A stretch of 64,000 bases of DNA from Amoeboaphelidium protococcarum X5 (taxonomy: Eukaryota; Fungi; Aphelidiomycota). Positions 1 to 64,000 of the stretch are shown in pieces. Position 1 is the first letter of the stretch. Each line of letters begins with the position of its first letter. The DNA lies in assembly GCA_023515725.1 (NCBI GenBank), contig JALDTO010000275.1:1-64000 (forward strand). The letters run 5' to 3'. A program made the position numbers and the translations under genes. Below the pieces are notes generated by a model, which searched no databases, was not told the origin of the DNA, and worked only from the letters and a program-made list of their open reading frames with translations.

Positions 1-150
1 GATGTAGTGAACTTTGCTAACAATGCATTCCCCCTATTGCCTAATTAAGAAGTTCGAGTGAAGTTGTTACCTATCATTGACTCTAATGTTCAAGTAAATC
101 CTAATGATATCAAGATTTGGACGCTGTATGATCTATACAATGAAATGTGA
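1..150 (+). CDS. 3' end of a gene entering from the left; possibly the C-terminus of a GH2 beta-mannosidase-like protein
   Basis: Frame 1 reads DVVNFANNAFPLLPNQEVRVKLL...IKIWTLYDLYNEM-TGA with TAA=Gln. The 'F.NNAF.LLP' and 'TLYD' segments resemble beta-mannosidase C-termini. Only 49 codons are visible. Confidence 0.4.
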
Positions 151-296
151 TTGTTTAGTGTCACGCGCGTCACGCTCTGATTTGCCAATTGGAATTTTAC
201 CTTTTGAATTTAAAGCGATTAAATCTTCTCACATTATCATCATCCTTTTTACATCAGCTTATTTATTTTAGCTAAATCAATCTTTTGACGCGAATT

Positions 297-1658
297 ATGA
301 GACAATATAAAAAGTAATAATACATTGGATTGGGAGTCGCTTTGGGTGTCCTTATAGCGCTGGTGCTATATTCAAGGTCCCTGTACTATCACCCGGGCCA
401 TTATGATCACCACCACCACCATCCTCATGTTGAGAGTAATCGCGCTAAATCTTAAGCAGTAGATTCTGCGCCTATTAATACTAACGGCCGTGATAAATAA
501 TAGCTTTTGACCAATGCTCTATCCGCGGTGCATCCTGACTTGACTGTAAACGAAGTTTAAGAATCTCTGGGCATTAATCTCCAGATGGGAAATGATTAAA
601 TTTGCGCTTCTGGTCTCAGCGAGTCCAAATATCCTAATACTGACTATTGCTATCCAACAGAGGTTCATGCAACTGATAAAGATCAATTGGTGTTATATGG
701 TCAGGTTATACCACCAGGACTCTATGTGAAGATGGATTTCCAGACTGGAATTAGATCAGTGCGACTACTCAATGACAGCGATAGATCACCAACAAAGCAT
801 GGTGATAATGCAGCAATGACTGAGGACTTGATTGTATCGCCTGATTAAACTAATACCGACAACGATCGCCAGGATTTATCTCATCTACCAAAAGCTTAAT
901 AGCTCTACATCAGCCTTTAGCAATCATAGTAAAGCAATAGTAATGCTGATGAACAACTTGATATTCTAGATAAACTGGAAGAAGCTGTGCATGATTATAA
1001 AGTTGGCGTTGAATTTGCCAAAGTTCCGAATGCCATCCAGAGCCTTCTCAAAATGGCATCCAGTATCAAGTCAAAGGGTGTTTAGGAGTAAGGTGACGGC
1101 GAATCTTCAACCAAGATCAGATAAAAGTTGTACCTGATTATGGGAGTGATGTGTGAGAATAATCAAAAAGTACAAGACTTGATAACTGCACAGATACCTG
1201 ATTATCTTGATTAGTTACTCAAAGAGATTGGTGATAAATCAGTGCAAGATGAAGTGATATTTGCCATTTCTAACTATGTGCGTGGGAATACAGATTCTAT
1301 ACAGAATGTTGCCGTCTCTGCCGTAAGCTCTTAGATTGGCAGGTAGATTGACAATGGCGAATCCTCTTAACGATACAACAGACGCGTCGTGGAATTGATG
1401 CAAGATTTGCTCTTTAGTCAGATGGAGAAGTCACTTGTTGAAGATTCCTCAGATTCTAACGGCTTTGATGCTAATAATTAGGACGTAGTATCTTCATATT
1501 GGTGCGACATTATCAAAAAAGTTTACTCTATATCTGGTGAGGATTCTGCAGTGGTTAAGGATGCTGCAAAGGCCACCGCTAATACTCTAAACGACTACTT
1601 TGCCTCGCGTCGGTCATCCTCCTCAATAAGCGATATAAAGACTTGTGACTTGCATTGA
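297..1658 (+). CDS. SIL1: SIL1-like BiP nucleotide exchange factor (ER)
   Basis: Table-6 ORF of about 453 aa with an N-terminal hydrophobic segment, CYP...GQVIPPGLYVKMDFQTG (SIL1 motif GQ.iP.GLHVR.nlqTG) and LDKLEEAVHDYKVGVEF. Ends in TGA. Confidence 0.8.
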
Positions 1659-1943
1659 TCTTAATATCTAACTATAGTATATAATTATCATTTTGAATTT
1701 AGATGAAGTGATTATCTTATTTTTCTACTTATAACCTTTATAACAGAGGAACTTTCGCTGTTACTTCTCTCCGCTCTTCTCTTTCTCTGAATTGCACAAC
1801 GGTTGATTGGGCAGATTATATTACTTTACCGCATTACAGTTTTATATCTATCTGTTAACTTTATTAATATAAAAAGAGAATATCTTTTCTTTATAGAAAA
1901 GTAATAAAGCTAGTCTGTGGCGATACTGAATAGAAAAGTTGAA

Positions 1944-4296: not shown

Positions 4297-7200
4297 TCAC
4301 TACTTTAAAAAGTCAAATTTTGACAATGATAATTAGATTTAGCGGAGCTGAGATGATGCAATAGATTCGTCAAAGTTATCACGAAGCCAATCTCGAACTT
4401 TGCACAGATATTCCATATTACCAAGAACCGCCGCATCTGATATTGTATTGTCCACACTGCTCAACACTTGAGTGTAATCTTACTCCAAATGCGCGGTCCA
4501 GGCAGCCAACGTAAGATCAATATCAAAATCTAATGGTTCACTTTGACTTTGTTACAATCCCATCACAGAACCGAGACTTTATAATGGGAACGCCCGATCA
4601 TCCTGCGTAAAATTAATCATGTGCGACACTTTATCATCGTTGACAGTTTGATCTTTCTTCAACTCATTCGATAGAACAGAACTTTATAACAGCAGCTAAC
4701 GTTTCTACTGCTTGACACCATCTGTTGGCGATGATACGTCAATATTACGTCTTTTGACACCTTTCGTAGGAGACACGTATTCCAACACTTCATTCCGAAT
4801 GTCTGATGGTAATTCCTTCATGACATCCCAATCCAGCTGAGATTCTGTATACATCTAAGGCTACTATGGAGCATTAACTTTGTTTACAGAACTTTACTGC
4901 GCAACTTTCTTATCCAAGTACTATGATTAATGCAGCATGTCTTAGTCAGTAGACTCAACAATGTCGCGTTGAAGCTCAGGTATAGATTTTCGGAGAGAAG
5001 AGTCTTGAGTAGCGGCTTTATATATCTGACTAAACTAGATGCCAATACCGCGAAGATCACGCAGAAATATACGAGACTAAGCAGCAGATTCGGACTCTTA
5101 GACAGAACCGACAGAAGCTGCCTATTCTACCATCCATACTTCATTACGACCAATAGATTACCACCACAATTATCGCATTTGCCCCATCAAACAATCTTGC
5201 TAATTTTACTACTTTAGTTATTGCAATTATAATGAGGAACCCCGCTCATCGTCATTAAGAGAATGAAGAATATCAAAGCATTGCATCAAACTGAAATTAT
5301 CCGGCACTTTTAAAGACTTTGAAAATGGGACATGCATTCCGCAGCCAAGAGACTTATGTGAAGGCTCCAATTCAGCACCAGGATGTCTCATTCGAAGCTT
5401 TAGCGTAATCTACTTAAACCTCAAGTCCTGCGGCAGACTGTGGGCAAGATAATCCATCACTTACTAGCGACTAAATGTATCAATCTTATCCTGCTGAGTC
5501 TTGCATAATCGCTAACACACTTCTGCATATAGAGAAAGCATAAAAGTATCCAATTGCTGGTAACTCTCAAATCTAATTCCCCAATTGATTTCTGCAGATA
5601 CAGTTTTGGCCACAGAGAGACAATCTTCAGCCACTTGATGACTACTCAACACTCCTACCAGATCACCTTTAGTATTACTGTTCAAATTGCTTGAGGTACT
5701 TTACACCGCACGGCTATTCTTCTATTATTACTAAAAGAAGGAATATAATCCACGTTCCTGAACACTTTCATATCCATGCAACATTGCAAATAACTTTAAT
5801 CCAGTCTTTTCGCCGATAATCTTTTTCAAACAATCAAGACACTTGGTATTAAAACTATTCTATGACTATTTAAGTAAATGAGGATTAGAAGCTGAAGCTG
5901 ATGACGATGTATGCCTAGTAAGAGCCATTCTTAAATCCCGAACGTGAATTGACTATTCATCATTCTTCTACATGTATTGATTGAGAGGAGATTTCTTCAG
6001 CTTATCAACTATTGAGTAACCAATCTGTTGCAAATCTTCAATCTTGAAATCATCCATGAATTACTAAATACGACTATGATCATTATCATCAGTCATCGTA
6101 GTGATAAAGATACCATGAGGTTTAGATTTACGCGTAGCCTGACGTGCCAACAACATTGACGGCCCAACGCCTATAGAAGCATCTACTCCAACAGACTCCA
6201 CAACATTCTTCTGCAACTTTAACGCTACTTATAACACAGTATCTTTGCCTACAATGTCTCTATCATAATATTCACTAGCTATCCTCCTAAATTAATTATT
6301 TCCAGGTTGCGATAACTATTTATTATTCACCACTGAGGACTATTACTACTAAACCATAGAAGTACAGTCAAGGTAAGCCTCATCACAGGACACACCTTAA
6401 AGCGCGTCAAACTACAAACCATTAAACTCGAAGGAGGATAGACATTCATAGAATCTCAACATGGCAGACTCATAAGCATCAAAATCATAAGGTAACATTA
6501 CCAGGTGTGGACATAACTATTTACACTTTCTTAAATACATTCCGTTGTGAATGCCAAACTATCGAGCAGCATAATTACAAGATGCAATCTCAGAACCACC
6601 TTTCCCAATAGATGAACTTGTAGAAGGACCACTCTTTGATTACTCTTGTGATTGATTATGATGACAAATTACCACTGGCTTATCCTTCAACTCTGGATAC
6701 TTTAAGAGGGACACAGATGCAAAGAAACAGTCTAAATCAATATGAATGATACACCGTTCACTAGTACTAGTTGACTCTAATTATTTACTGATAGCACTAG
6801 AAGACTATTTGCCGTCCTAGTTCTAAATCCTAGAGAAAGAATACTCTAATATCTTCTATTTCCATGTAGATAAATAATGTAAACGAGATTGACTGTAGAA
6901 CTGGGACACAAATTCTGCATTCATACTAGAATTCTACCGTTTCCATTAATCTGAACTCTACTACTGCTATTGATTAGATTTCTATTATTATTACTTAACA
7001 CTAGACTGACTAGATGAATCTCCCATCTGTAAACTTTAATCACCAGCACTTTTAGAATCTACAAATTTATTATTATTACCACTGATCTATAGCATGGAAT
7101 GAACATTAGTCTACGCAGAAGGAGCAGAAGACCATTGAGGTATATCGCTCTCTTGTATGGGCAATACTTTACCAGACTCTATACATTTCAATAACCAAGA

Positions 7201-7581
7201 GGGCTTAATTACGGAGGGAGATGATGATTTAATCTACTTTGAATGAGAGGAGGAGGAGGAGGACACCTTGCTCTGTTTCGATTTAAATTTCTGCGGGAAC
7301 AGTTGACGGTACCGAGAGAAGGACAGAGACTGGGCAATGATGTGCGTCACTTGAGAAGTCTCATAATTACTAAACACCCCTCCATTGAGTATAATTAATT
7401 ATTTGATATCATCAGTACCGCGTCCATCAATAGAAATATTGCCCGTTGCATAGAACACGCATCCTCTGAAAGTGTCAGACTGCTTCGACTCTCGCAGTAT
7501 ATCACCATACTGACTCTACTGTTGTTCCATCAGTTTTTACTGCTTAATTTGCATGTACTCACCAAAACCATTATATGCCAT
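4297..7581 (-). CDS. REV1: REV1 translesion deoxycytidyl transferase (BRCT + Y-family polymerase)
   Basis: Table-6 ORF of about 1094 aa: MAYNGFGEYMQIK, BRCT segment (VTHIIA), IIHIDLDCFFASV, EIASCNYAARQFG, SCDEAYLD. Confidence 0.93.
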
Positions 7582-13969: not shown

Positions 13970-14299
13970 ATGTCTTCATCATCTAGACCGAATAATGACA
14001 AGACTGCACAGGTGCAGCAAGAAGTTGATGCCGTCGTTGGTATAATGCATGATAATATTCACAAAGTCATGGACAGAGGCGAGAAGCTGGACTCTTTGCA
14101 GACCAAGACTGATGATCTGTAGTAGGGTGCTCTGCAATTCAAGCGTGGTGCCAGCCGAGTCAGATAGCAAATGTGGTGGAAGAATATGAAGTTGAATGCT
14201 ATCATCTGTATTGTGGTGATTATCATCCTCTTAATCATTATTGTGCCTATAGTTACCACTGTGCAGAAGAATAATAACAACAACAACAATGGACAATGA
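13970..14299 (+). CDS. Synaptobrevin/VAMP R-SNARE (Snc1-like)
   Basis: [58 protein letters not shown] followed by a TM helix. Needs TAG=Gln and is absent from the ORF track. Confidence 0.96.
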
Positions 14300-20263: not shown

Positions 20264-21871
20264 ATGATAAGTTTAGCAAAGTGTCGCTTACCAAAGGAGT
20301 ACTACAATTTGAGTTTTCGCTCTTTTGGAAATTTCTATGAATCTGATGCCACAATAACAATGACAAACTGTGATAGTCTCGATATGCTAGCAGATTATTT
20401 GAATAAACCAGCGAAAGATGCGAATAGCACAATTGATGCTTCTGATTAAAAATATTTACGCGTCATTTATCATGATAAGAGTTAGTGTGGATTGATCAAT
20501 GTCGAGTCAATCTTTAAAGATACCTTTGCCATTCAACTGCGGTAAGCTTTATAGTACTTGGAATGGTAGGAGAGGAGTAATGATCTATATCACTTTTATT
20601 AATCGACAGATTTTAAGCATTTGGATAGGAGCGATCCTAATTTATAACCTCTATGTCAGTTGCATAGCTTGATCAAGTGCAACACTAAAGAGTTTGTGAA
20701 GTTTTTATTGGATTTAAATGGTATTAGCGGAGATAGTAGCGATGACACATACAGTTTTAAGTACGATACTTTGATAGAAGGCAAATTTGATATGGCTGCT
20801 CAGAGATATGATCCCGGTAATTATCTACTCTGCCACGATGATGATATTGCAGAGAGTGATGGTACTGTGAGAAAGTTGGCGTTTGTGATATACCTGGTGT
20901 CGGATGATTATGCTCCGGATGGTGACGCTACAGGAGAGAGTTGTAATGGTAAGCTCAAGTTTTATGGCAATAGAGTCGATCAAGTCAGTTAGAGATTAGT
21001 CCCTGTGGATGTTGTTCAATCTGTGGTGTATCCGCGCTTTAATTCCATTGTAATGTTTGAAGTTGGTAGGAGTAGCTTTCATTGTGTTGATACCATGCCT
21101 TCTACTCCGGATACGCGTTCAAGATATTCAATTTCTGGTTGGTTCTACGCGTCATAGACTGCCGATTAACCTTAGATGACTGCAACTGGTATATTTAGTA
21201 ATGACAGTAGCTAGAAATTGATATCGCCAGCTTATTGCAATGACAAGTTGTAGATTTAGATTTAGGACAAGTTTATGAACGAGTCTGTAGTGTAACTGAA
21301 CGAGTTCTTTAGCGCTGATGCTATGAAGGTTTTATATGAGTAGATACATAAAGCTGCTCTGTATAAGCCAATTACTTTGGATGTTAGTAGATCAAAGTAT
21401 CACTTGTTCGATCCACAATCAGCCGCTGGTTAATCTGTAAAATCGATTGAGTAGTATTTTAAGGATGATAGTTTTATTGAAACTCTGTAGAAGCTTTCGG
21501 GCTTGTAGATTCTTAAAGACACTGTTAATGTGGAATATAAAGTGTTCTGCATTGAAAACTATTAAATGATTGATAGTAGTAAAATGTCAACTGGGGACTG
21601 TCTCGATCTATACTATTTTGTGGATTGCTCTGACAATGAACATCTTTCAGGTGATAGCGAAAACGCTTCTTCCGATAATACAAGCTGTACAGTGGTTTAT
21701 GTTAGTGGAGAACAAACGTTAGTTCAGTTGTGCCCTCCTAGTAATACGTTAGTTCTTGTGTACAATACGGGTGTCGAGTAGGACTTTGTGAGGCTGATAA
21801 AGAATAAGTCATCCGCCGTTGTATTTAAAGCCACTTATGTGTTGTAAGAAGATGACGACGACGAAGAATGA
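20264..21871 (+). CDS. TPA1: Prolyl 3-hydroxylase OGFOD1/Tpa1 (2OG-Fe(II) oxygenase); start may be ATG 20360
   Basis: ERSNDLYHFYQS, YLLCHDD, RKLAFVIYLV, SFHCV, RYSISGWF, plus a second degenerate oxygenase domain. Confidence 0.88.
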
Positions 21872-25913: not shown

Positions 25914-27275
25914 ATGAGTCTAAAAAACTTGGTGAATAATGTAGTTAAAACAGTCTAAAGTGGGGATAGAATCTACATGCATTCAGTAGCCTCATTCCCG
26001 TAAATGCTCATGAATGCATTGGCGGATCGTGCCCGCTAAGAGCCAGATTTGACCAATCTAAAATTTATTCATCTGCACATTGAGGGACAGTTGCCATTTG
26101 AAGAAGATGAGCAGCTGCGAAAGTAGGGCGAGAGTGTACATCTATTCGTTGGACATGGCTCACGTAAGTATGTTAATTAAGGCGTCGGTTCGTACCTTCC
26201 CTGCTTCCTCTCTGATATTCCGATGCTGTTTCAGACTCGCACCGTACCGATCGACTGGGCATTCCTCAATGTGTCTCCACCTGACAGGCATGGCTATTGC
26301 TCTCTTGGTCCAGAGGTTTGTGCCGCGCTCAGTGCCGCTCAAGTTGCGCGTAAAGGAGTTATAGCTCTGATAAATCCCGCGGTTCCTCGCTGCTTGGGTA
26401 ATTCGTTCATTCACATGTCCTAGATTACGCATCCGGTAGATTTGCAGCAGGAATCACTGCCTCTTGCGTGTGTTGAGCATCATGAGCAAAAATCTTCTGA
26501 TTATGTGCATTAGACTGGAGAAAGTAGTAAGGATGTACAGTCCGTGTAGTAGAGAATTGGATCTATACTCAGTACTCTGATACCGGACCGGGCTTGTTTG
26601 CAGGTAGGAATTGGATCTGTCCCCGATGCTGTGCTATAAGCTTTGGGTGGACATTAGGATTTGGGTCTTCACTCTGAGATGATTAGTGACGGCGTTATGC
26701 AGTTGATGCAAAAAGGTGTTATAACTAATAGGTTCAAATCTATCCAGCCGGGAAAGTCGGTAACTTCATTCATGCTAGGCAGTTAATCACTATATGATTT
26801 TGCGCATGATAATCCAGCCATACACATGGACAGCGCCGCAATGACTAATAATCCTAGAATTATTGCATAGAACGATCGTGTCGTGGCGATTAACAGTGCT
26901 ATCGAAGTTGACATTACAGGCCAGGTGTGCGCCGACAGTATTGGCAAGAAGTTCATTAGTGGCGTAGGTGGTCAGTTGGATTTTGAACGCGGTGCAGCAC
27001 TATCTAACGGAGGAATGCCTGTGATATGTCTGCCATCTCTGAAAATCACCAAACAAGGCCCCGCATCATCCATAGTGTCCACCCTTCCCGGTGGGAGCGG
27101 AGTCACAACTACGCGGTACCACTCTCACTGGATAGTGACTGAGAATGGTGCCGTGAACCTGTGGGGACTTACGATGCCAGAACGTGCACGTAAACTTATC
27201 TTTATCGCACATCAATCAGCTCAAGAGGAGCTGGCTGCTGCTGCATATGAACGGTACAAATTACTTATTAACTGA
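25914..27275 (+). CDS. Acetyl-CoA hydrolase/transferase family protein (4-hydroxybutyrate CoA-transferase-like)
   Basis: VSPPDRHGYCSLG, LQVGIGSVPDAV, DLGLHSEMISDG, AINSAIEVDITGQVCADSIG, SGVGGQLDF, VTENG. Confidence 0.95.
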
Positions 27276-36408: not shown

Positions 36409-36595
36409 TCAGTTATGCATAAGCTCAATCACAAAAGTGAAAGTTGCGTAATCTACTGCATATTTGAAGTATCTGCAAAATTCATTCTATTCTTACTTCT
36501 TATCATCATTTATTACTGCAAATTTAACTTAATGTCATCCTAGTTCACCTTTTTGTAATCATCCCTAATCATTGTCATTATCATAGAGTTCTGTA

Positions 36596-38636: not shown

Positions 38637-41108
38637 TCATTCCAAGTCAACTTTAACAATTCTTAGTGAGTAATCGTCAGAGGAGATAGCCAATTTTAAT
38701 GGTAAAGTTCCGCTTTCAATTGGTCTCCATTTAACAGAAGTGACGCTTTTCTTGGGACAATCAGATTCTGTTAATCTCTTCGCAATCTTCCATTCATTGA
38801 TTTTATCGCAACCAGCGCAAAATATCTCGATAGTACCATCTTCATACCCGACGGCAGCGATTAACTTTCCGTCACACGAACTGCCATAAACATCCACAGA
38901 CATTGGAACTTTGGCAACTTTCACGGTCTGAATACATTGCCACAAATTAGTGGTGGAATCCAAAGACCACACTTTAAGGCTCTTGTCACGCGCTATAGTC
39001 ATAAACTCAGTGTTGGTCGGCAGCCAACTGCAATCCCAAATCATTCGAGAGTGAGCATTCTGGCATACTTGCTGTACACTGTAAGAATTGAACGCGTGTT
39101 CGTACACTGTCCATTGTCTGTCTCTTCCCACAGTTACTATAAATCTATCATCGGGACTGAACTGAATACTGCACACAGTCTATTTATGAGTTTTAAAAGA
39201 TTCCAAGCGTTTAATCTTTCCACTAACACCATCTATTCGCCACAAGATCAGAGAGCCACTCTTTGTATCAACATCATTCAGAGATGCACGACATACATTT
39301 GCACTCATCATGTATGCATAATTGTTGGCGACTGCTAGCGTATATAAATCATCCCCATGTGCATATAACTTGTCAATTTCAGTCCACAACGTAATTGATG
39401 ACAAATGATTCTCCATAGGTATGATGGCAGATTCACTTTAAAACTCGTCTAGATGCGAAAGATCATCCTTGTTCTCAATATTAGCTTTATTGGACAATCC
39501 AAGCGCTGGAAGGGTTGAGGCCTTCTGCACCTCCCAGAAATCCTAATGAGATTCTGCAGCATTGGACACCGTAGATGGAAGAGATTTAAGTGACATGAGC
39601 TTCTTACACAGTGGAGATGCCTCAAATACTCTAATCACCTTCTCTCCCTCAGAGCAAGAGACAAACCTCAATCCATCCTGAGTGGTAAACGCTGCACGAA
39701 GCAGAGGATATCCATGTATTTGTGGACGATTCAACTCTAGCCAGCGAGGAGTGCCATCAACTTTAACTTCTGTCCAAATTCTAGTAGTTTTATCCAGGGA
39801 GGTTGATAAAAGCATCTGTCCATCATGACTCCATGTGCATCCTTTTACAGAATCAAAGTGACCCGTCTGGGCAGGCAAAGTCGTCCACTTACTGTCGTCA
39901 ATCTCCCTGCCCATTTCCAATTGCCAAAATTACACAGCTCCTGCATAGGATTATCCAAGAAGAAGCAATCCATCTTCACGATGCAACACATGTGCCCAAT
40001 AGAATCCACAAGAACCTGCACCGCCATTACCACTCGCGGAAGGACTATTAACTGTGTTGGCACCAGAATCACCGCCAATATTGCCATTCAAAGCCATAGA
40101 CAGATCATAGAATCTGTTTAAAATCTACCAAGACGCGTCACTATCCATTGAATCCCTTCCCCAGAGACATATCGATTTATCAGCAGACGCGGACACCAGG
40201 TAATCAACTTGGTTGTAACTAAACCATCTAACAGAATGGACCCAATCTTCATGCCCAGAAAGTACTGCATCAAGTTGCACTTATAAAACTCTATCCTGAT
40301 CAAGATTAGCTTCATATAATTTAGTTGCTAGCTGAGACTCTAATTTCTATTGCAGCAATGACTGATTCTACTAGCGATTGCGACGATCAGATTAACTACA
40401 AATCTTAATCTTGAACAGTTTGATGTACTTATCTAACGAAGCTGTAGCTAACATCCATTAGTTATTATCACCCGAAGATAAAGACTTTAATTCCATATCC
40501 TTGATCCAGTCTGAATGAGCTGGCAATGATAGAATCATCTTCACTTGAGATTAATTAGACGCGTCAACATCAAGACATAGAACAGTTAGCTTAGAATCTG
40601 TAGTAGCGGCAAGAATTAACAGCTTCTATAAGCAGTCGCCATCACAAAGAGGTAGTACTTAAACGCAAGTAGCTACTTTGCCTTTATCAAGCTTGTATTG
40701 GACTTGGTTCGCAGCGATACTCTATTGTGATGGAGAAAATTACAAAATCATAAGCATTCCATCGCTAAAGGACACCGCAATCCAGTATTGATCATCATCA
40801 CCATTCACTCCACACACTGAGATATTCAAAATAGATGTTCCATCACGTCGTGTTGAGTGCAATAGCTAACCATTAAGAGTGCAAATATTAAATTAGCCAC
40901 TAGAGTCTCCAGCACTATAAAGATCACGAGATATCCATTTCAATGCAGTGATCATTGAGAAAGAAGGCACTATCAACTAAACTGGATCCGACATGACGTC
41001 CTAGCCAGTATTCTTCACATAAATATTCACATCAGACGCGTAAATTAATTGGCCCAACTCATTAACGCTAGACACATTAGGCTTCTATTAGATTGCTGCT
41101 TTGAGCAT
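38637..41108 (-). CDS. ELP2: Elongator complex protein 2 (WD40)
   Basis: RPQIHGY, EKVIRVF, PALGLSNKA, HLSSITLWTEIDKLYAHG, AHSRMIWDCSW. Confidence 0.93.
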
Positions 41109-43665: not shown

Positions 43666-44490
43666 ATGATCAAAACATTGAATCAAATTCCTTCTCATAT
43701 CATTCGCCCGTATTACGTTACGCAGCCTTTGCGTGAACGGACTCTTAATCTCAAGAATGCGACAGATATAGTAAAATTGCGTGAGTCTTGCGTTATAGCT
43801 AGAGATACTCTAGATCATTTGAAGAAGTTTGTTGTACCGGGTACTTCAACGTTTTAGATTGACGCGATGGCAAGAGAGTATATCACGCGTCAGAACGCTT
43901 ATCCTTCTCCGCTCATGTACAACAAATTCCCAGGTAGTGTTTGTACAAGTGTAAATGAAGTTGCTGTCCATGGTATACCATCTGAAGATATTATTCTGCA
44001 AGACGGTGATGTGATTTCTATTGATGTTACTGTCTTTAAAAATGGATTTCATGGTGATACATGTGCAACTTTTACTGTTGGCAAATGCTCAGAAGATTCT
44101 AAATAATTTGTATAAAAGTCGCGTATGTGTACTATGGATGCCATCAAAAATATTGAGGTGAATGGCCCTCTGAATAGAATAGGATTAGCTATCGATCGGT
44201 TTTGTTCAGCCAACTCAGTTACTAGTCTTTAAGCATTCTACGGTCATGGAATAGGAGCTGATTTTCACGAGCTTCCGTATGTCTCTCATTTCACAGATCA
44301 GGATTGTAATGATGTAGTTCGTGAAGGTATGGTATTCACAGTGGAACCTGTGATAACACGGTCCACGTCGCAAGATTTAGAAATGTGGGAAGACGAGTGG
44401 ACTATCGCTACTGCAGATGGGCAGATTTGTGCATAGACTGAGCATACCGTGGCCATTACTCACAATGGAGTTGAAATTTTGACTTTATGA
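43666..44490 (+). CDS. Methionine aminopeptidase type I (no N-terminal zinc finger; MetAP1D/bacterial-like)
   Basis: AYPSPLMY..FP.SVCTSVNEVAVHGIP, DGDVISIDVT, HGDTCATF, GHGIG, FTVEP, AQTEHT. Confidence 0.95.
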
Positions 44491-44800: not shown

Positions 44801-47800
44801 ATGGAGAATTAATTCAGTGCTATGAATAGTGGAGGTTAGAGTAGTAGTACTGGCGATGGAAAGTCTATGAAAGCTGTGGATAAAACTGTGAATGCTAGTT
44901 TGCCTGGTGCTGGTGTTTAAAAGAGCACTGATGGTATTGAGAATGTATTCAGGAGTAGTAGTGAACCTGTGTAAAGCCGTGCCACCCCGTCTTAATAAGG
45001 GAATTAGTAGCAGTAGTAATAGTAACAGTCGTAGTCTTAGAAGTAGTAGCATTAGCAAAAGTTATAGGAATAGCCACCTTCAGGATCATCAAAGTTGAAT
45101 GCTAGTGATTTTTTGGCTAATTTGAAGAGGAATGCCTTTAACAGTCCTATAGTCTCTGCCAGTGTTGTGTAGAGTGCCGTTCAGTAGACATCGGTGTCAG
45201 CTTTTAGTTCTGTTGTGAAGTCTAGTTAGTCAACTGCATTGAAAAAGTCCTCCAGTATGAAGAGTGATCTGCCGAGGTCTGTTCCTCTTTCCTCTCCTTC
45301 ACCTGCATACCATAAAGAGACAGTGACCGCATAGCTGAATATTATGAGTGAAAAGGTGGTTAGAAAGGTGTCCACAGAGTCTTTGTAGAGTGAGGAGGAC
45401 ACATAGCCGCATTTGAGACTGAGCAATGTACGTCCTTAGTTGTAAGAAGTTCATTAAACATCTGGAAAGTAACAGCATTATCATCATCATCTACAGCAGC
45501 GTTAGAGCGCGTCGAAGTTGGGCACTCAGTATCCTTAAATGATGCCTCCCGCTGTCACTAATCGTCCTACTTGTCCACCTAATGATTAGTCAAAGTAGCG
45601 TTTAAAGCCTATTTCTTCTGCAAATGCGGCAGACTAATCGGTAGATGTCATAACTATTGATACTAGCTCGGATAGGAGTTCTGAGATGCTGCCGTCATTG
45701 AGTTCTATTCTATGTCCTCAGCGTCCAAGACTGCCTCCTATGGTATAGTCCAACAGTTAGGCTGCGACCAAGTAGGCAAGTACGTAGTAGTAGTAACAGT
45801 AGTAGTCATCTTCATAGCAAAGAAGATCGAATGCGGAGTTGACACGATCTGGAATAAGTGTTAGGTAGTACAGTGTACCTCAATTTGACACTTCTTTGAC
45901 TTCACCTGATGTTACCTCGCCTGATGTAGTTATTCGTTAGTACAGTAAGCCTTCGTAAGAAGTATAGTCATCTTAGATTTCGGAGTCTGCATCTTCTTAG
46001 CAATAAACAGGAAGTTAGGTACGTTCGTCTCAAGCGCCAGTTTAATAAGCTCCGTCAGCTACTCCTGTTATTGAAAGTGCTGTCTAGTCTAATAATTCTC
46101 CATAGTAAAAGTATTAATAGCCGTAATCGCTTGATTCGTCTCAGGAACAGTCTTAAAGAGCAGTTCAGTAGCCGCTATAGAAGGAGTAGAATGAGCTGAA
46201 TCATGGTGTGAATGTGGACAAGCCATAGAAGGATACCATGCTCTTGAAGCAATCTACTATTCCAACAGTTCAAGCTCCGATTGTTTAGGATTAGAAATCG
46301 CAGTTGATCAAGTTGAAGACTCCAAAGAAGCGCAAGCCTGCAAGTGAACTTTTAAAAGATTTGAAAAATAGCCCGAAGAGTATTCTGAAGAGCAGTTCTA
46401 AGCGTTAGAACAAGTATAATTTGGTGGATCCGGATGGAGGTAGAACGAAGTTGTAGAAGATTGTTAGAAGATCCGCTATTGATGAGCTCTAGTAAGCTCT
46501 TCTCGGACCTGATAATACCCACTTTGATGTGGATGTTACTCTGTCTGATTCGGATAACTCTAACTGCTTCCACTTTGCGTTGTATAGGGGCAATGCTAGA
46601 ATCTTGGAATTTCTTATTGAATACTAGGAGTGCAAGAGTAGTAAGATGATAAGCACACTTATGGACGAGATTTGGAAAACTCCATCAGTGTTGAAATCCA
46701 ATCATAAATGGGATCTCGACTATAGTTTAGCCTTCAGTTTGCACCAGCGTGCATTTGGTAGCGGTGATAGTCCAATGCATGATCTCATAAACGGACTTTA
46801 TGACGTAATTTGCCGAGCTGTTGAAGATACTGATAGTTTGCGTAGAGGCTTCACTTCTGATGATTTGCAATTTGAGGAGTGTTGTCGCTTAATTCTGAGC
46901 AAAGGTTATAATGTGCAACTTAAGAACAAAAATGGGCAGAATCCTGTCTAATTGATGGACTTTTATGGAGATTTGTTGAAGAAGCACAATGATTATCTCT
47001 TTCAAAATAGAACATTTGGTGCTGTGAACTAGCTGATCTCTCAGTGGACTATGGTCTCTACGTTGTTACACAATTACCAGAGCTTGCTTAGTGGATTTAC
47101 TGATGCTCCCCCACCGTCTTTGATGAATCTCTTACCTGTGTCTAGTGTGGAGAATAAGATTGAGTATTTGAATTAGATAATTCGATGTGGATTGGATCTA
47201 CGGTCTGCAGACTCTGACGGCAATAATATCTTTCACATTGCGGTGGCTGCATTTGATGTGGAGCTGGTAATGTATCTGTGCTGTATATCAAATCCTATTA
47301 AAACTACTCCGATGAAGCTGTTTTCCTCTTTGTAGAGACTGCTGAAGACTATGAGCATTGAGCCGGATAGGAATTTGTACCGTTACGACGCCAAATTGGA
47401 ACTCATTTCTACCTGTAATGCAGATGGCGATTCTCCATTTCATACTCTGATTCGTGCTGTTAATTGTGCCTCAAAAAAGTCTACCATCTCTAGCCAGTTG
47501 TAAGATAGGGTACTTTTTCTTATATAGATACTGCTAGTATTTGGACTAGATTTTATGGTTCAGAATAGAAGGGGATAAACTGCTTTGGAGACATGCGAAG
47601 ATACTCAGTTGAAATCTGTTATTGCAGACTTTTATGGCAGATACTTGGATTCCAATGACACAGAAGGTGCTTAGAGTGAATAATTGAAGTAAGAGGAACC
47701 AGTTACTAGGCGTCAGTCGGCACAGAGAGCCGGCAAGATTGCGGCATCCCAGTCTTTGTCTTCTATCGCTTCGTCTAACTAAGTATCTCCGAAAGTATCC

Positions 47801-49267
47801 TCCTCGTCCTCTTTATAATCCGCTTCTTCAAAGGCTCCGCGTGCTAATACCGATGATTAATCAGAGTCTATAAATGATGCACCTAAAGTGCGTGGTAAAA
47901 GGAAAAGGAGATTAGCGGCATCTTCATCAGGTGTTTCTACTGAAAATCGCAAGGATCGCGCTCGATCTATTGAATCTTCCAGTTCGGTCGCTACATCTGT
48001 AACGAATGCGTCCAGAACGAAGACTCCTACTGGTGGATTCCCTAAAGGCTTACATCCATTCTCTAAGGATGGTCATGGGAGGACAAAGTTGTAGATGAAG
48101 GCACGTGCTGGTATACTGAATGACGTGTAGAAATTGATAGAGCTGAGTGCGGATGTGAATGCTCGCGATCACGCTGGTTATACTCCACTTTCTGAAGCAG
48201 TGAACAATGGTCACTATGAAGTGGTGAAGGTTCTACTTGAGAATGGTGCTGATGTTAATAATCACGGCTTGGATGGCGAGACGGCTTTGCATGAGGCCGT
48301 AAAAAGATTGGATGTGGATATCATCAGTCTTCTTCTGCAGTATGGAGGAGATCCATTCTCAACTAATCACTAGGGGTAGATTGCTGTTGATTTTCTGAAA
48401 GTTGCTAGTCCACTGGCGCCATTGAAGAAGCACAAGGATGCAGTCGTCAATTAAATTAGGGAGATTCTTGATTAGTACACTGAGAATTCAATCATGCCAA
48501 TGACTAGGTAGAGAAAGAGACGCTTGACGGCTGAATCGAGTGATTCTGTTTTCAAGTCTTATTCGCCTTCTAAGAAACACCAGATTGTTAAAGACAAAGA
48601 GGAATCTCAAGAGAGCATGCAGAAGTCAGTCGATAAAGTTGCATCGTAGAAGAAGGCGTCTCCTGTTAAAGCGGAACCTGTTAAAGTTGAATAAAAAGAT
48701 AGTGCTACTGAAGCACTTGCTGCCCTTAAAAGCATATAACCCGTTGCAGCAGTGAGCGTAAAAACTGAATTTGTTAATTCACGCAAGGATTCTGCTGCAT
48801 CTTTGGCTAATTCTTCTGTTGGATCGTCTCAGAATTTGGCATTAGCGTCTCAGCAATAAGTTGCCATAGATGAGCAACTTCTTCCTTTGGTACTTTTTTC
48901 CAACCCAGAATTGTCTGGTGAACTGCTTGTAGTTGACGATTATCTGGCAAAAGTCCTTGGGTTTAATAGTACTAGCAAGATGTATCTGAAATTGGGCAAG
49001 TCTGCATTCATTCGCGATTAGCTTAGAAGTAAAAGAATTGCTGTGAGTGGCACAATGGCCTAATAACTCTTACAAATTCCCGGTAATGCTCAATGGACCA
49101 GGTATCTGGAGAGTGGTGCATAGCTTACTCAGAAATGTCATTTTATCCCCTATTCGCTGTTTTAAGATGAACTGCTGCCGTACTACGTGGAACTGACCGA
49201 TATGGACCCGTTGGATGTTTCTTCAATGTTGGATGATTCTTGCATGACTGAGGTTAAATTGAATTGA
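44801..49267 (+). CDS. Large (about 1488 aa) Gln/Ser-rich ankyrin-repeat protein (Hos4/ANKRD11-like ankyrin module)
   Basis: One table-6 frame joins track ORFs 46646, 47888 and 48134. GRTKLQ...DVNARDHAGYTPLSEAVNNGHYEVVKVLLENGADVN...GETALHEAV. Confidence 0.8.
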
Positions 49268-53207: not shown

Positions 53208-56200
53208 TCAGCGACCATTACTGGAGACAGTCTTGAAAGCGTTAATAGCCTCTTGAATACCTTTATACACTACTCCTCTGAAGCGATAGCCCACATTGAT
53301 ACAAGTGATAGTCTCTGATAAAACATTATGGCCAGATCCCAGCTTGTAGATCAGGTACAACTTTCCCGGCTTATCATTAGCTAGACACATGAAATAAGGC
53401 ACACGTTAAGGATTAATCTGAATCTCCTGTTCAACCAACACTTCGACATCATCACGAGACATGGCGCGATACTTTGGATGTTTCTATGCCGCCTGTAGAT
53501 TTCTCACCATCGGATTAATGTAGAAAGATTTAATTTCATCCAAGTCTGAAAACTTTTCATTCTCAATCCACAGCTCCTTGCCAAGACCATAATCGCTCTC
53601 TTTACGTCGCTCTTTGATATCCACATGCTGATAAATACCTTCACCCACCTTCCAACTCAGCACCAGATTATCCTTACCTCTACTAGAAGGGCGAAAGACG
53701 CAATCACCGACCGGACGATTCCTGAGATAATCCTGACATTCACGGTAGGAGAAGTTAAAGAACAGAGGATGTTTAATGGTTCTCTTCAGCTGTTCATTGG
53801 TAGGACGAGCTTTGTTCAGTAAATTCAAATCTTTCGCTTCAGCATTAACGTCAAAATACTCGTCGCGTTTGATTTGACGATAGCGCTCAAATTTATCAGC
53901 AACTTCGAACACTTGCACATTCACCTAAAACTTATCCTTTTCAATACTAATAATCTTCACTCTGTATGTCTAACCCTCTTTAAAATGCTCCTACGGCCTT
54001 TAAGCAAAAGAGCCCATTGCCTAATTGGTCATATACCCATCTACTCCATTCGCCAATTTAAATGTAGCAAATTAGTCCTTCACTCTAAATGCCATTGCAG
54101 GCAAAACCATTCCAATGCGGAGACTCTAATCAGATTCCCCAGTAAGTATGGTAAACAGCTCATCCTGACTCGGCGGACTAAAAGGTTATCGAGGATCTCT
54201 GTACGGACGCTTGAGCTCTTTTCTAATGAGCTCTAGCCTGGCAGTCATGACGACACCACGCTCTTGCTTCAGCACATCAGCATACTCGTCCAGTCTGAGA
54301 GCGGACAAAGACTTGAGCGCTTCTTAATCGTGCATAAAATCAGCCACTGTCTAATCAGTTGAACTGTCAACATACTCCCTACCAAGAGCATCAAACACAA
54401 TCTTCCGCGCCACCCCGTAGTCTTCAGGATGTATGCGAGTGCTGTCCAAAACTTCGCCTTAAATCGCAGCTCTCTATCTCTTGTTACCCCGCCTATTATC
54501 ATACTCTTCGTCATCATCATCTTACTGGAACTTGAAAAAGGAACAGCAATTCTGAAAGACGACTGATGCTAGTTTTACAACACTAACCAGCTCAACACGA
54601 TTATTCAGCAGGCCACCATTCGCAACGATTCTCTATACGATCATTTACGCCTTCCTTGGGCCCAATCCGCAAACGAATTGCAATAAACTCAGAGCAGTGC
54701 TTCTCTCGATCACAGCGTTCACATCTACACCGACATCATTTACCATGGAGATCATACATCTCTCCATGCGCTTGTACAGCTAGTCTTTGGGCATAAGATC
54801 TTGCATAACATGCAACGGCAGATATAAAGCATCCTTGTCTGCATTGAACATCGCTGCGTACTCAGACAACGGATCAATAACATATCGCCCAATACCAACA
54901 CAATATCTCAGCACAGGAGGATAGATGGGAAACTCTTTCTCTGCGCGCGACGAAGACTGATAGATTCTGGCAGTCTCATCTTTGGTGTAATAGACAGGCA
55001 CTCGGATTCCCTATGCTTGCAATGTTCTAAATATATTCTCGTACAAGAACCTCGTCTAGATACTCCATCCGCTGATAGCCAGCGCTGCAAGTTGGCCGTC
55101 AGCTACCAACTCTTCCACATATTCGACTAGCTTGATCAGATCCTGTTTCTGTGCTTCTTGATTTCTGCTGTGAATTGCACTAAGTTTTATATGACCTTGA
55201 ACTGAGCCATCTTCCAAGACGAATGCTGCAAAGGCTGCAGTGCTAAAATCACCATCTCCACAAGATACGGCCAGGACGCCTCTCTTAGCAGCAATAAGAC
55301 GTCTTCTTTCATTCTAAGCCGAGGAAGAAGGCATCTAATAATTACTTCCTCTGATAAACGCCTAGTGGGGCTGCATCTTCAAACTTTTCATAAACTAATT
55401 CTCAATCTTGTCCAGAATAAAAAGGATGGATTTTTATCGATGCTACTCAATTATCCACGCCTTTGCCGACTATAACTGAAGCTACATAGCTTCCTAAAGG
55501 ACCTTTCGACGCTCCTGATTAAATAGATCGCTGTAGCTACTATACCCATTACTCAAGTACAATCGACAATACTGGTCAAATGTAGATTGAACATCACATT
55601 CAATCTTATATGTAACCAAACCTTCAGAGGTAGCTTTCATAATCCACAAAAACTGCATTTCGTCAATCTTACCAACTGGCTTTTCGCGCAAATACTTGAA
55701 CGCATAATAATCATGCTACTCATCAATATCAATCTTGCCCTTCTCGGTGGCGTAGACATTGATGATGGCACTCTTACCCAGCAACTGGCGCATTGAACTA
55801 CGAAAGGAGAGTTCAGTTGAAATTTCTCTAGCCATCAAAAATCTTGTGGCTCTCATAACACTGTCGGTAGTGAGCAATTCATCACTCAGATACTACTCTG
55901 CCAACTACCTGATATCGACATCCAGATCTTGTGGCTAAATACTAGGATACTAATCTTCTATATTTCGAGCAAATTCATGGCTCTTCAACGCAATCTAACT
56001 AGCAAACTACTAAAGATTATTTTCCAAAGCCACTGTATAAGCATCTCTCTACACTGGCCGCTTAATACCTTAACTTGTGGAGGAGTCCATCTGTTTATCA
56101 TATTACACTTTCTGCTACTTGAATTCCTCCATCTGCTTGCGATATCTTGTCTGCAAATAGTCTGTCATATCTCTAACTGCATCAAGACTTTGGATCTTGG

Positions 56201-57587
56201 ACAACTCGGATTCCAAATTAATATCCATGGCCACATGCTACCATCGACGGAGGGCATTCTTCCTCTTTTCAACCTCAACGTACTGCTCATGAAGATCCAA
56301 CACTGTCCAAATCTCGCTGTCACTTAGTTAACTCGAATACTGATCCGATCTATGTCTTTGGATAAACGGTACCTCAAAGAGTTATCGCACCATCAACTCA
56401 AGCACGTTCTCTATACAATCAAGCAGAGGCTGGTCATACAACTCTGCCGACTTCTGTCCTTATTCTTGACGCAATTCACACAGTCGCACTGCAATCCATG
56501 AAGATTCGGTCTTCAAGTCGGCATCATTCTACTCACTAAAACAACCAGACAGTTGATACCTCTCCGGCATATCAACCTGACGGATACGATCATCTCTGGC
56601 CGTGAACATTTTTTCTGCAACTTCAGCAGGCTCATAAACATCCTCAAGCTTTGACTTCTCGCCACGTCCTCGTGACTGTCTCTAAATCTGTTTCTGTAAA
56701 GTATCACCGTTCTACTCAGCCATGTCATCGTCATCTTCTTCTTACTCTCCATATTACTGCTCCGCATCTTCATCGTCAGACTGTTAAGAAGGACCTAGCG
56801 CGTAAGCATACTCTTCACCATCACCAAACATATCCTACACTTCAGCCCAGTCCTCTACTGACAATCCCAACTACTAAGCGACAGAGGAAGTCTTTTTCTA
56901 CTTTGATCTAACTGGACCTGTTGACTACTACTTGGCACTCTACTTAAATCTTTAAGAGGTAGCGCCACTACCCTGCTCTCTAGTTATAAGCCCTTCGAAA
57001 CCATCTGAATCCTCCTCTTCACCCTCTTCATCTTTTAACAGTTCCTGCTCTTCATTGGCACTAAACTTCATAACTTTCGCCTTCTTGGCCATTTGATCGT
57101 TCTGAGCACTGGCATTATGTTACGGCCCTGCTTCATCATCTTCATCAGAAAACAGATTGTTCAAATCGCCCTTATTATTTGATGATAACGATGATTTATT
57201 CTATACCGGGCTTCCTTTATTTCCAGTATCTTCAGCATCGCCATTATTACCGGTAATCTCACGCATTCGCTTCAATCTGCGCAACTCATTTCGATTACTA
57301 CTGGAGTTCTTTAATCCGTAATTTTCGGCAATCAAATCCAAATCATCCTCATCCAAATCTTCGCCATCTTCATCACTCTAAGCAGATTTATCGTCAGCGA
57401 TTTGCTCCTCTCTTTTATCTCCCGCATTGTCTTCTGATAATTATTATTGTTGTTGACCACTGCCACTATTATCCTCGTTTACAACCTCCATCGAGTCTGC
57501 CATAGAATCGCTTGAAGATCCTAAATTCTTCAATTACTATAACTCTTATTGCCCTTGCTACTCTATTCCATCGTTTTCTAAATCCAT
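53208..57587 (-). CDS. SPT6: Transcription elongation factor / histone chaperone Spt6
   Basis: LDEDDLDLIAEN, LEDVYEP, YKYLREKP-like segment, DETARIYQSS, LQFVCGLGPRKA, tandem SH2 (IKHPLF...FRPSSRG). Confidence 0.97.
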
Positions 57588-59745: not shown

Positions 59746-62700
59746 ATGACGTCTCGCTTCAATGATCATCATCATCCTCATGGAAAGTCGGTGAAAAATG
59801 GAGTAATCGGAGATATTAGCGATTCTTTTAAAGAGTCTCGCCATGCAGTGTCCTCGCAACCTCAGTACGGTAAAGCTATTGGTAATAGTTAGGCGTATAG
59901 TCTCCCTATGAATAGTAGCGTCATCCCTGGCGGCGATTAGCAATGGTAGTAGTAGTAGTAGCAGCATGGTGGAACGCTGCACTTGAATGGTCAATAGATG
60001 TCATCATCTGCATCTTCTGTTGGGATCATGGCATCTAATGGCGGCTATCATTTATAGTCCTCATCAATGACCATTGGTGGTGGTGGTGGTATCATTGATA
60101 TCGGTGCTAGAATGTCTTAAGGGGACTCTATGCTGAATGATGGTTTTATTGGAGTTGGGCTTCATGGAACTGCAGGCACATAGATGATGTCTACGAATTC
60201 GTTGTCTCATAGCGGTCTCAACAATGGTAATAATAATCATAATAGTAGACCTGTTGTGTAAGTCAATCCTCCTTAACAGTAGTCACAGCCATAGCTTCAT
60301 TTTGATGGACAACAACTACCTCTTCCCCCTAACGCTAACAGCTACAATAGCACTAGCAATATCTATAAAACTTTCACGCCACACAGTATGTCATACAATC
60401 CATATGTAACGTCTCACCCGATATCTGCATAGTCGACATAGTCGTCGTCGCCCATTGTGTATGGTTCAGGATCGCAGTCGTAGTAGTAGTAGCAGTATAT
60501 GCGATAAGGATCCGTATAATAGTAGTAGTAGTAACAGTCACTTAATGATGGTCAGTAGTCGTATTACTCTAACCACGCGAGCTATGTCAGTTCTTAGTAG
60601 CAGTATTCTTCACTTCGCGCGTAAACTGGAGATGCTGGATCATCTAACTATGGTGTATCTGTTGCTAGTGGGCTTTACCGACCGCGTACTTCAAGTTCTT
60701 TATAATCTTAGCAGCAGTAGTAGTAGTCTTAGCCTCCGTAGATGGTTGAAGGGAGTGAAGAGTATAACGCGTAGATGGCTACGGTGCCTGAATTCATCAA
60801 GAAGATTTACAAAATGCTGGAGAGTAAAGTGTACTAGAACATCATAGATTGGACTTCTACGGGGGAATCATTTATAGTTAAGGATCCCAATGAACTGGCC
60901 AAGATGGTATTGCCCAATGTGTTTAAACATTCAAATTTCGCATCCTTTGTACGCCAATTGAACAAGTATGATTTTCATAAGGTTAAGAATGGGGAGGATT
61001 TAAAGTTGTACAATGGCATGGCGTGGGAGTTTAATCATCCCAACTTCAAGAAGGGGCGGATCGATATTCTGCATAAGGTTAGGAGAAAGTCATAAAAGAA
61101 GATTGGTGGCGGTACTTCGATGGGTAAAGACGACTAGGACGGCATGGACGATAATATTGGTGGCAGTACTGTGCATATAGGCAATAGTAATGGTAATGAG
61201 ATGTCAAGGAAATCATCAGAAGATTTTGCAGAGGTGGAAGTGCCCAAGAGTGCCAATCCGGTTTCGTTAGAATCCTCTGATTTTCAGCTGAAAGTGGATA
61301 ATCTTCTTGAATGTCAGTAGATTGTAACGTCCTAACTGCAGAGTATTACAAATAGTTACTAGCTGATGTAGAACGAGGTTGGTCTTCTTAAAAAGGCAAT
61401 ATCGTCCTAATGCTTGCTGATGACCCAGATGGCTGAGGTGATTATTAGCGGGGCTCAGTAGAAGTAGCTGACTGTCTCTGACAAGATGCTAACTTCATTG
61501 ATTAATTTCCTGTCTTCTTCTTCTTCTAATAGTGGTCAATTTGGTGTACTCCCTTAAGAGAATGGTGGTATCAATCAGTAGGGGTAGTAGCAGCAGTAAT
61601 AGATTCAGTCCGGTCTCATGTAGCCTATTCCAGCGACTGCTAATTTTGGTAATGATGGGGTGCCCGTTAATCTAGTGGCCAATTTAGTCGCTGATGCTCA
61701 GATTAGACTGCAAATGTAATAGCAGTAAAAATCCCAGCAGCAGAATGAGTAAAATGGTAACAGCTAGTAAACTTCTGGCCATGGTGCATCTGCAAATGCC
61801 GGCAAATCTGGCAATTACCATAATCACCACCATCATTAGCAATAAACTAGTGCTTAGTAAAAGCTCTCTCAGTCACATAAGAGGGAACATTCTTGGACCT
61901 CGGCGCCTAAAGTTCTGCTGGTCGAAGATGATCCTACTTGTAGGACTCTGTCTTCAAAGTTGTTGTAAATTTTTGGCTGTAAATTCGATGTTGTCACTGA
62001 CGGGCTTGCTGCTGTCAACAAGATGAATTTTGACAAGTATGATCTAGTTTTGATGGACATTATGATGCCGACTCTGGACGGTGTATCTGCGACTCATCAC
62101 ATCAGACAATTTGACAAACTCACTCCGATCATCTCAATGACTGGAAATACAACTGAACGTGACTTGAAGGTCTATCTCAACACTGGAATGACTGACATTC
62201 TACCCAAGCCTTTCTCAAAGGCCTCGCTGCTTGACATTCTGGAGAGATACTGTAGCCATTTAGTCTCTGCCAAGTTTGAGGAGAACTTTAAGAATAATCC
62301 AATGCTTTTTGATTAGAACTCGTTGTTTAGTTCGTTGCGTAGTAATCCTAATCCGTTTGATTCACTCACCTCCTTGTACTTGGGCAATATCAGTATTGAT
62401 GGTAGTATTTTGACTTTGGAAGATGATGAACAGAATGGTGTCAAGAGCGGTGATAATAAAGATAGGGATAGATCTTTATCTGAGCTCACCTCCACTTCAT
62501 TGTCGTAGCTGTTGTCTACTGTTAAAGGGTTTAATGTATTGCCGTCTAGCGGTGGTGCGACTAATCCTCCGTCACTCACTAACACTGTTACTTCCGAGTC
62601 TGAACCCAAGATTATAGAGCTGAAAGACGATGTTTTGATGGATTAATAATAAACTCATGATGCTGATTTGGAGGCGGATATGGCGTTGGACCAGCTGGCG

Positions 62701-62970
62701 TCTAATTAGAAGGGGAATCGTAGTAGTGGCTCACATAGATCCAATTCATCTGGTAGTCAGCATAGTGCGAAATCTTCCACTGGTAAGCGCCCCATTGACG
62801 ATAGTGGTGAAGTTGAAAGAAGTATGGGGAAGAGGAGTAGCTCTGCAATACAGTACTCAGAGTAATAGCCAGGCTTATAAAGTGTCAAAGGACAAGTTTA
62901 ATTTACAAATGGCAGCAGTGCGGCAAATTTAAAAGCTAATAGTCACAAGAGAAAAAAGACTAGTACGTGA
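59746..62970 (+). CDS. SKN7: Skn7/Prr1-type transcription factor (HSF DNA-binding domain + response-regulator receiver)
   Basis: PEFIKKIYKMLE...FKHSNFASFVRQLNKYDFHKV; KVLLVEDD...YDLVLMDIMMPTLDG...ILPKPF; poly-Gln tracts written as TAG/TAA/CAG. Confidence 0.95.
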
Positions 62971-63386
62971 TGAAAACAATAATAAGTAAGAGTCAATAAA
63001 ATCATTCTATTGAATACATTATTTTTATTTGAACACATCACCTACCTGCTTTCATCGATCAATCTAGCAACTCTGCAATCTTATATAAATGTTCAAGTAT
63101 TGCCTCCTTGATAGCTGGTAGTGTAAACGCGTTCATAGTACTGGACTTGGAAGTTTATATCGCGACCAAGACATACTACACACATCTCAAGACAATATTA
63201 TTATTTTAGTCTTTGATACATTCAATAATAACCTTACGTGTTGTTCAATGATGAATAAACAGTAGAGACACGAGTCACCACTCATATAAGCAGATAGAAT
63301 GTTGGCATTCTTACTTGAGGTGAATAAATCTCCTACACATCTTATTACTATTACAAGCAATGTCATAACACTGAGTGAGAGAAGAA

Positions 63387-64000
63387 TCAATACTCACCTA
63401 TCAACTTCGATGCATGATACCATTAATGAACCAGATCGGTATCAGGCATGCACATATTGATGCTGGCAGACTATTTATTGGTGGCAGTAGACGACGTGGT
63501 ATCACTCACAGTTGCCACACGGTCAGAATCTCGAGTGTTTGAACTCTTAGCGGTGCTCTTTCGCTCCGTGTTGCCCTTTTTAGGCCCGTGATATGATTTG
63601 AACTTTTCAACAACTGCACTCAATTACTGAGCCTTGTTAACGCCACCATCTTTGCGCCTGTCTGCGGGTTGTTATTGTACAGACTATTTCCCCACCAGAT
63701 CTGATCCGAGTGATCCGCAGCTAATGCCCACATTGTCACTTCCCTCCACAGCAGGTGGCAGTGAAAGAACTGTGCGAATCAGCGACTTGACATCCAAACA
63801 GATTTACTCAAGCTGCTTCTTCTTAAGAGGGGCTAATTTGTATTACTTCTTCTTGGAACTTGGTCCAAAACAGCTCGAGAACATTAGAATAAGATATATA
63901 AGTATCTGCGCAATTATATCAAAATATTAAACTAAAGCGATACAACTATAGCAATAATTGCCGAGACAATGACTCTGGACAGTACTGTAATGAAGGTGAG
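63387..64000 (-). CDS. 3' part of a hypothetical gene entering from the right; may splice on towards about 63059
   Basis: Table-6 frame open from the window edge to ...WYHASKLI, where G|GTGAGT is a strong donor candidate. Downstream exon structure could not be resolved. Confidence 0.55.

Follow-up and report, generated by a model that had tools for sequence, protein, structure and literature searches.

In the 64,000 nucleotides analysed here (positions 1 to 64,000 of contig JALDTO010000275.1; this whole stretch is called the window), the triplets TAA and TAG lie in frame in the protein-coding genes and are very probably read as glutamine (Gln), with TGA as the only stop, which is the assignment of NCBI translation table 6. 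We write TAR for TAA or TAG, CAR for CAA or CAG, and use R (A or G) likewise for other codons. The window is gene-dense nuclear DNA with a GC content of 40.2%.

Open reading frames and in-frame TAA and TAG

Under the standard code, the window contains 20 frames of at least 120 codons; the longest has 181 and none reaches 200. With TGA as the sole stop, 19 frames of at least 500 codons make up 70.8% of the window, the longest being of approximately 1,716 codons, while no more than one frame of that size was seen in 30 second-order shuffled (Markov) copies of the window. Taking TAG as sole stop yields five such frames, and TAA as sole stop or any pair of stops yields none; hence, TAA and TAG must both be sense. 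We relied on the Markov control rather than on a single-triplet control, in which CCG/CGG and GGG/CCC reach a higher cover than TAA/TAG only on account of their rarity (709 and 493 occurrences, respectively, versus 2944).

In all, we collected 28 single-frame genes (16,350 codons; 49,134 bases or 77% of the window) that are open only if TAA and TAG are sense. They include 327 TAA and 444 TAG (771 TAR) in frame, next to 254 CAA and 307 CAG (561 CAR), and each gene carries at least three TAR. TAR thus constitutes 4.7% of the codons and Gln 8.1% of the residues, where CAR alone would give 3.4%. The share of TAR among the Gln codons differs from gene to gene, from 0.27 to 0.79 (chi-square 66.6, 27 degrees of freedom, p 3e-5). 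The initial annotation, made from the nucleotide sequence, had described genes full of in-frame TAA and TAG, and the 771 codons across 28 genes bear this out, the number of long frames being far above that in the Markov controls. Conserved domains are involved as well: 22 of 46 table-6 frames matched Pfam at E ≤0.001, many of the unmatched queries being alternative frames included on purpose, and 23 of the 28 genes have a match at this threshold (two of these matches are probably spurious), with in-frame TAR within conserved domains. The recognisable genes, with strand and TAR content, are the following:

297..1658, plus strand: SIL1-like protein; 21 TAR; exact table-6 translation in NCBI
4297..7581, minus strand: REV1 (BRCT and IMS domains); 75 TAR, two of them opposite Gln in human REV1
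13970..14299, plus strand: synaptobrevin; 3 TAG
20360..21871, plus strand: Tpa1/OGFOD1 hydroxylase; 24 TAR, including TAA at 20600
25914..27275, plus strand: acetyl-CoA hydrolase/transferase; 13 TAR; 98.9-99.1% identity to Amoeboaphelidium protococcarum copies
29328..30881, plus strand: alpha/beta-hydrolase lipase; 15 TAR; exact table-6 translation in NCBI
34244..34522, plus strand: TIM10; TAR in 11 of 14 Gln codons, three of them immediately before TGA
34762..36408, plus strand: TFIIE alpha; 34 TAR
38637..41108, minus strand: WD40 protein (Elp2-like); 23 TAR; end coincides with homologue ends
43666..44490, plus strand: methionine aminopeptidase (MetAP); 5 TAR, including TAG at 44434 in A-Q-x-E-H-T
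44801..49267, plus strand: large ankyrin-repeat protein; 101 TAR; poly-Gln runs of mixed TAR and CAR
53208..57587, minus strand: Spt6; 68 TAR; 96.5-97.7% identity to A. protococcarum copies
59746..62970, plus strand: HSF and response-regulator protein; 78 TAR

Pfam identifies the gene at 38637..41108 as WD40, and we take it to be Elp2-like; the gene at 59746..62970 is presumably Skn7-like.

The amino acid at TAA and TAG

The residue specified by TAR was approached by homologue searches in which TAA and TAG were masked as X, followed by the scoring of every codon of four genes against profiles built from 119 homologues for acetyl-CoA hydrolase, 119 for Spt6, 134 for WD40/Elp2 and 22 for Tpa1. 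The A. protococcarum match was removed from each set before profile building; from the WD40 set, we also dropped one near-identical fragment and 15 of 149 others that fell outside 640-940 residues. As a control, the procedure assigned each of the 61 sense codons its standard meaning. TAA (36 sites) scored 22.4 for Gln versus 15.5 for lysine (Lys), with Gln best in 1983 of 2000 bootstraps, and TAG (58 sites) scored 31.1 versus 24.5, with Gln best in 1977 of 2000; the posterior was 0.999 for either codon, alignment columns being treated as independent, which weighs against taking these posteriors at face value. For the pooled 94 sites, Gln reached 53.5 and Lys 39.9, and Gln was best in all 2000 bootstraps. 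Masked decoding and homologue C-termini (see below) thus both support the assignment proposed in the initial annotation, TAA and TAG as Gln with TGA as stop.

Other points count against the Gln assignment, too. With two genes, the decoding gave a weaker result, with posteriors of 0.89 and 0.94 and correct recovery of 58 of the 61 sense codons; acetyl-CoA hydrolase alone hardly separates the two residues (Q 7.7 versus K 7.6 over 11 sites), and WD40/Elp2 alone, also with 11 sites, ranks Gln fourth. The amino acid at TAR is inferred from alignments. Moreover, database proteins from this species were translated with the same table, so that their agreement with TAR is circular and was not counted as decoding evidence.

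Individual sites are coherent with Gln. The TAG at 44434 in MetAP is opposite Q in all four alignments shown (of 69 matches), and the TAA at 20600 in Tpa1 (codon 81, F-Y-x-S) is at a position where 22 of 22 homologues carry Q; both sites had been given correctly in the initial annotation. In Tpa1, a Q-x-Q-x-Q stretch aligned against human OGFOD1, and two TAR sites of REV1 are opposite Q in human REV1. The third example offered originally, synaptobrevin LQQGA, is weak: at L-TAG-TAG-G-A (14117), the first TAG is opposite Q in two of the four alignments shown (both VAMP2) and the second in none. The earlier statement that TAR falls on conserved Gln positions is therefore right for MetAP, Tpa1 and the two REV1 sites but does not describe TAR at large, since only five of 94 aligned TAR (and nine of 90 CAR) occur in columns with at least 50% Gln, most TAR being at variable sites. 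The count put forward for TIM10 was accurate (7 TAA, 4 TAG and 3 CAR). Independently of the alignments, the codons most enriched next to TAR are TAR itself (2.65-fold) and CAR (1.6-fold), followed by Lys codons (1.15-fold), and 10 of the 11 poly-Gln runs of five residues or longer mix TAR and CAR.

Lys, second in the pooled decoding, is the obvious other candidate for a sense reading of TAR (or else Glu), and TAR does stand opposite AAR at five sites in a pair of ankyrin paralogues (see the last section) and in three strain differences. However, genuine Lys codons score K 114.8 versus Q 73.8, while genuine Gln codons rank Q and then K, in the same order as TAR. Furthermore, TAR occupies the invariant Gln of MetAP and Tpa1 and occurs together with CAR within homopolymer runs. 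The exchanges between TAR and AAR are accounted for by A/T changes being the commonest transversions in the compared runs. We consider it extremely improbable that TAR means Lys or Glu.

Another possibility is that TAR is mainly Gln but second-class, being decoded less accurately or with residual termination, so that key Gln sites keep CAA or CAG. Some counts point that way and, thus, away from full equivalence of TAR and CAR. Columns with at least 90% Gln hold eight CAR and one TAR (binomial p 0.017; 0.047 when the MetAP site is included), and between the ankyrin paralogues none of 13 Gln sites shows a TAR/CAR swap, versus 12 of 32 Leu sites with a TTR/CTR swap (Fisher p 0.0096). In addition, runs of Gln are richer in TAR (238 of 353 versus 533 of 979). 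These tests are, however, post hoc and small; compared with the other two-fold sites of the ankyrin pair, of which 18 of 90 differ, zero of 13 is marginal (p ~0.055). Strains do swap TAR and CAR (two cases, versus three for Leu, among the differences listed), and column conservation shows no overall difference between TAR and CAR sites (Mann-Whitney p 0.39). History alone, with old Gln sites retaining their ancestral codon, predicts the same pattern and is the simpler reading of CAR at invariant Gln than a difference in fidelity. A second-class status is, therefore, unlikely. If it were true, TAR would be used at variable sites and in poly-Gln tracts, with CAA or CAG retained for essential Gln, and the reassignment would be one that is not yet complete, in a relative of fungi that can be cultured and has several sequenced strains.

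TGA as stop and the fate of TAA and TAG in transcripts

That the 28 frames end at TGA follows from the way in which frames were called and is not independent evidence. The C-termini of homologues are: they end within 10 residues of TGA in 115 of 119 cases for acetyl-CoA hydrolase, 122 of 134 for Elp2 and 20 of 22 for Tpa1. For Spt6, the figure is 51 of 119, a looser agreement due to homologues that are often longer-tailed. The earlier claim that the genes terminate at TGA is thus sustained by three of the four families. The end of MetAP lies one residue past the aligned end of its homologues, and reading through TGA in three gaps revealed no Pfam domain in 15 frames.

Depletion of TAR towards gene ends is a signature of codes of the Condylostoma or Blastocrithidia type. 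Since standard-code frames seemed to be clustered at gene ends, we considered such a depletion and rejected it, as no trend is apparent along the genes: in the last 10 positions before the stop, TAR accounts for 16 of 25 Gln codons, and its share does not vary with position (Spearman -0.02, p 0.55). In Condylostoma and Blastocrithidia, UAA and UAG are sense inside genes and also serve as stops (PMC5304391); the window resembles these organisms in the sense use of both codons within genes but differs in retaining TGA as a stop and in showing no loss of TAR towards gene ends. A dual, position-dependent meaning, sense inside genes and stop near the mRNA end, is accordingly very unlikely here, the more so as homologue ends coincide with TGA in three of the four families tested and TAR as the last codon in two of 28 genes is about what chance would give (TAR frequency as above). 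In those two genes, TIM10 and REV1, TAR directly precedes TGA and leaves the true stop unreadable from DNA alone, and genes outside the window could behave in the dual manner. There was no sign of TAA or TAG acting as stops in the 28 genes, a single window in which rare cases are possible.

The codons could also be genuine stops, in pseudogenes or by sequencing error, or be removed from the transcript as tiny introns or by U-to-C editing. Against this are the 771 TAR with not a single in-frame TGA or frameshift in 28 frames, housekeeping genes included, and the conservation of genes at 93.6-99.1% identity in other copies. The codons are also kept in contigs from other samples. Sixteen sequencing runs are listed, none on record as RNA, so that transcripts were not formally compared; six were compared with the window. 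Of the strain differences listed (40 of 1,385 and 40 of 139), 1 and 7, respectively, were non-coding and omitted, and the 72 coding differences were examined. Among these, there are two changes from TAR to CAR, five swaps between TAA and TAG, two changes of AAG into TAG, one of TAA into AAA and one of TAG into GAG. New TAR arises mid-gene three times, including a TTA to TAA change in the middle of MetAP present in four of four runs of one comparison; a new TAR within a gene is therefore tolerated much as a missense change would be.

On the minus strand, contigs of run X6 skip a 65-base GT-AG intron (63333-63397), where the DNA runs alongside show no joint; on that basis, X6 is probably RNA. 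A single X6 contig covers the large ankyrin gene (31 differences, 90 TAR) and another the HSF gene (31 differences, 68 TAR), in either case with no internal joints. Thus, the refuting observation named in the initial annotation, TAR edited or spliced out of transcripts, is made unlikely by contigs that retain TAR without joints, taking X6 to be RNA. The X6 contig over Spt6 (99 differences over 60 TAR) is uninformative on editing. Of the 10 differences of run X12 over TIM10, nine are listed, one of which touches a TAR. Neither X6 nor X12 covers the gap from TIM10 to TFIIE alpha, which we did not count as evidence, and run X1, with no differences over 34200-36450, was not treated as independent, since the window itself may derive from it. 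Runs X13 and X14, with small shares only, were not used to judge habitat. Editing or splicing-out of TAR is unlikely, as judged from contigs of another strain whose library type is not on record; and, with all lines of evidence considered, we give next to no credence to in-frame stops that are real or removed. No related locus emerged from two scans of JGI metagenome contigs: the first gave 180 pattern matches, of which none could be confirmed, and the second gave no matches.

Source species, origin of the code and other genes

Each of the three homologue searches had a named protein of A. protococcarum as its best match. Seven genes of the window are 93.6-99.1% identical to 13 named A. protococcarum copies, the locus numbers of which ascend in window order in two colinear blocks. 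The window represents a third copy, identical to neither block, and is probably from another assembly or haplotype of A. protococcarum or its species complex. Identity and colinearity sharpen to species level what had been described as an aphelid-type genome. A genome-wide duplication is mentioned in PMC10608142, and the two blocks fit it. The GC content of the window is near the 40.5% of A. protococcarum but is not diagnostic, A. occidentale having 39.9% (Table 1 in PMC10608142). Three unnamed metagenome proteins (P0002, P0003 and P0122; 55%, 55% and 36% identity) are far closer to window proteins than any named fungus and are possibly from other aphelids; the genetic code of their sources could help to date the reassignment.

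The code in the window is thus genuine and was read correctly in the initial annotation, but it was known before and is in use in database annotation. Reportedly, according to papers that cite them, Karpov et al. described UAR as Gln in A. protococcarum in 2013 (PMID 23058793). Four papers state UAR = Gln for this species with Karpov et al. 2013 as the source (PMC5304391, PMC6299283, PMC11687900, PMC6394959), in line with the original remark that the code had been reported before; two others have that work among their references (PMC13192750, PMC8629427), and in PMC8657485, we found no passage on this code. For seven of eight window proteins tested, NCBI contains an exactly identical table-6 translation, all from one contig; the one without an exact match is TFIIE alpha, perhaps due to the choice of start codon. 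The prediction that standard-code annotation would miss most of the genes holds in principle (the longest stop-free piece under the standard code has a median of 22% of gene length over the 28 genes), but NCBI already translates TAR as Gln. The significance of the finding is consequently small: the code was published for the species in 2013, and NCBI annotation already applies it. When aphelid contigs are translated with table 1 or 11, pipelines obtain nothing more than fragments, such as P0261 in the representative protein library, a piece of Elp2 of 179 residues whose start lies immediately downstream of the last TAR.

Compared with the nuclear code of A. protococcarum (UAR = Gln), we found no difference, the species or species complex being the same. 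Table 6 as used by Tetrahymena-type ciliates, ulvophyte algae, Hexamita and oxymonads has the same assignments (TAA and TAG as Gln, TGA as stop), but the aphelid origin is independent of these lineages, on the fungal side of the opisthokonts. Paraphelidium tribonemae, also an aphelid, keeps the standard code (PMC6299283).

By analogy with Tetrahymena, TAR could be decoded by copies of tRNA-Gln with UUA and CUA anticodons, the UUA anticodon reading both codons by wobble; such tRNAs may have arisen from duplicated tRNA-Gln genes by a change of one anticodon base, and an altered eRF1 that lost UAR recognition would terminate only at UGA, as has precedent in Tetrahymena. In that ciliate, tRNA-Gln with either anticodon has been demonstrated (PMC5304391); PMC5304391 also lists eRF1 motifs (GTS, TASNIKS and YxCxxxF, in the N-domain), and wobble reading of UAR is described (PMC11687900). 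In the window, ARAGORN detected no tRNA gene, Rfam gave no match, and Pfam did not identify eRF1. Our literature search found no account of A. protococcarum tRNA-Gln or eRF1, or of proteomic proof of the code; the primary papers of 2013 and 2022 were outside that search and may cover these points.

After their release from termination, TAA and TAG would have accumulated chiefly at variable sites and in poly-Gln tracts, in many cases by mutation of neighbouring Lys, Glu, Leu, Tyr or Ser codons; this would explain both the Gln content of 8.1% and the Lys shoulder in the decoding. At 12 sites, Gln is present in a database copy but absent from the window; five of the window codons there (TTA, TAT, TCA) are one step away from TAR and not from CAR. 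New Gln thus seems often to originate by way of TAR, and the second rank of Lys in the decoding would follow from this as well.

The two ankyrin paralogues compared above, at 27714-29006 (minus strand) and 49722-51038 (plus strand), are 62% identical over 430 codons, with one stretch of 78-95% identical DNA. Both consist of a hydrophobic N-terminus, an F-box-like segment and ankyrin repeats; Pfam detects an F-box in 49722-51038 (E 0.00028) and none in 27714-29006. They resemble secreted F-box/ankyrin proteins, and a host-directed function in a parasite of algae is plausible.

A dynamin-family frame at 32491-33504 (minus strand) comprises the GED and only a portion of the middle domain; its GTPase domain was not found upstream, even on reading through TGA, and the frame appears to be a truncated gene or pseudogene. 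Three overlapping frames on the minus strand within 8054-9443 (8592-9443, 8548-8928 and 8054-8713), with a signal-peptide-like start and no Pfam match, may be one frameshifted or intron-containing gene. For three more frames on the plus strand, motifs are similar to those of known families but Pfam gave no confirmation: 51153-53141, with an N-terminal motif like that of the C9orf72 longin domain; 1944-3650, with C-terminal motifs like those of SMPD4-type neutral sphingomyelinase; and 58162-59013 (283 residues), with H-G ... G-x-G-x-Y as in proteins of the ADP-ribosyltransferase fold. Finally, a small gene on the minus strand (~63070-63885) has two short GT-AG introns (65 and ~62 bases) as deduced from the joints of run X6; its spliced frame terminates at TGA, the other 28 genes being single frames.

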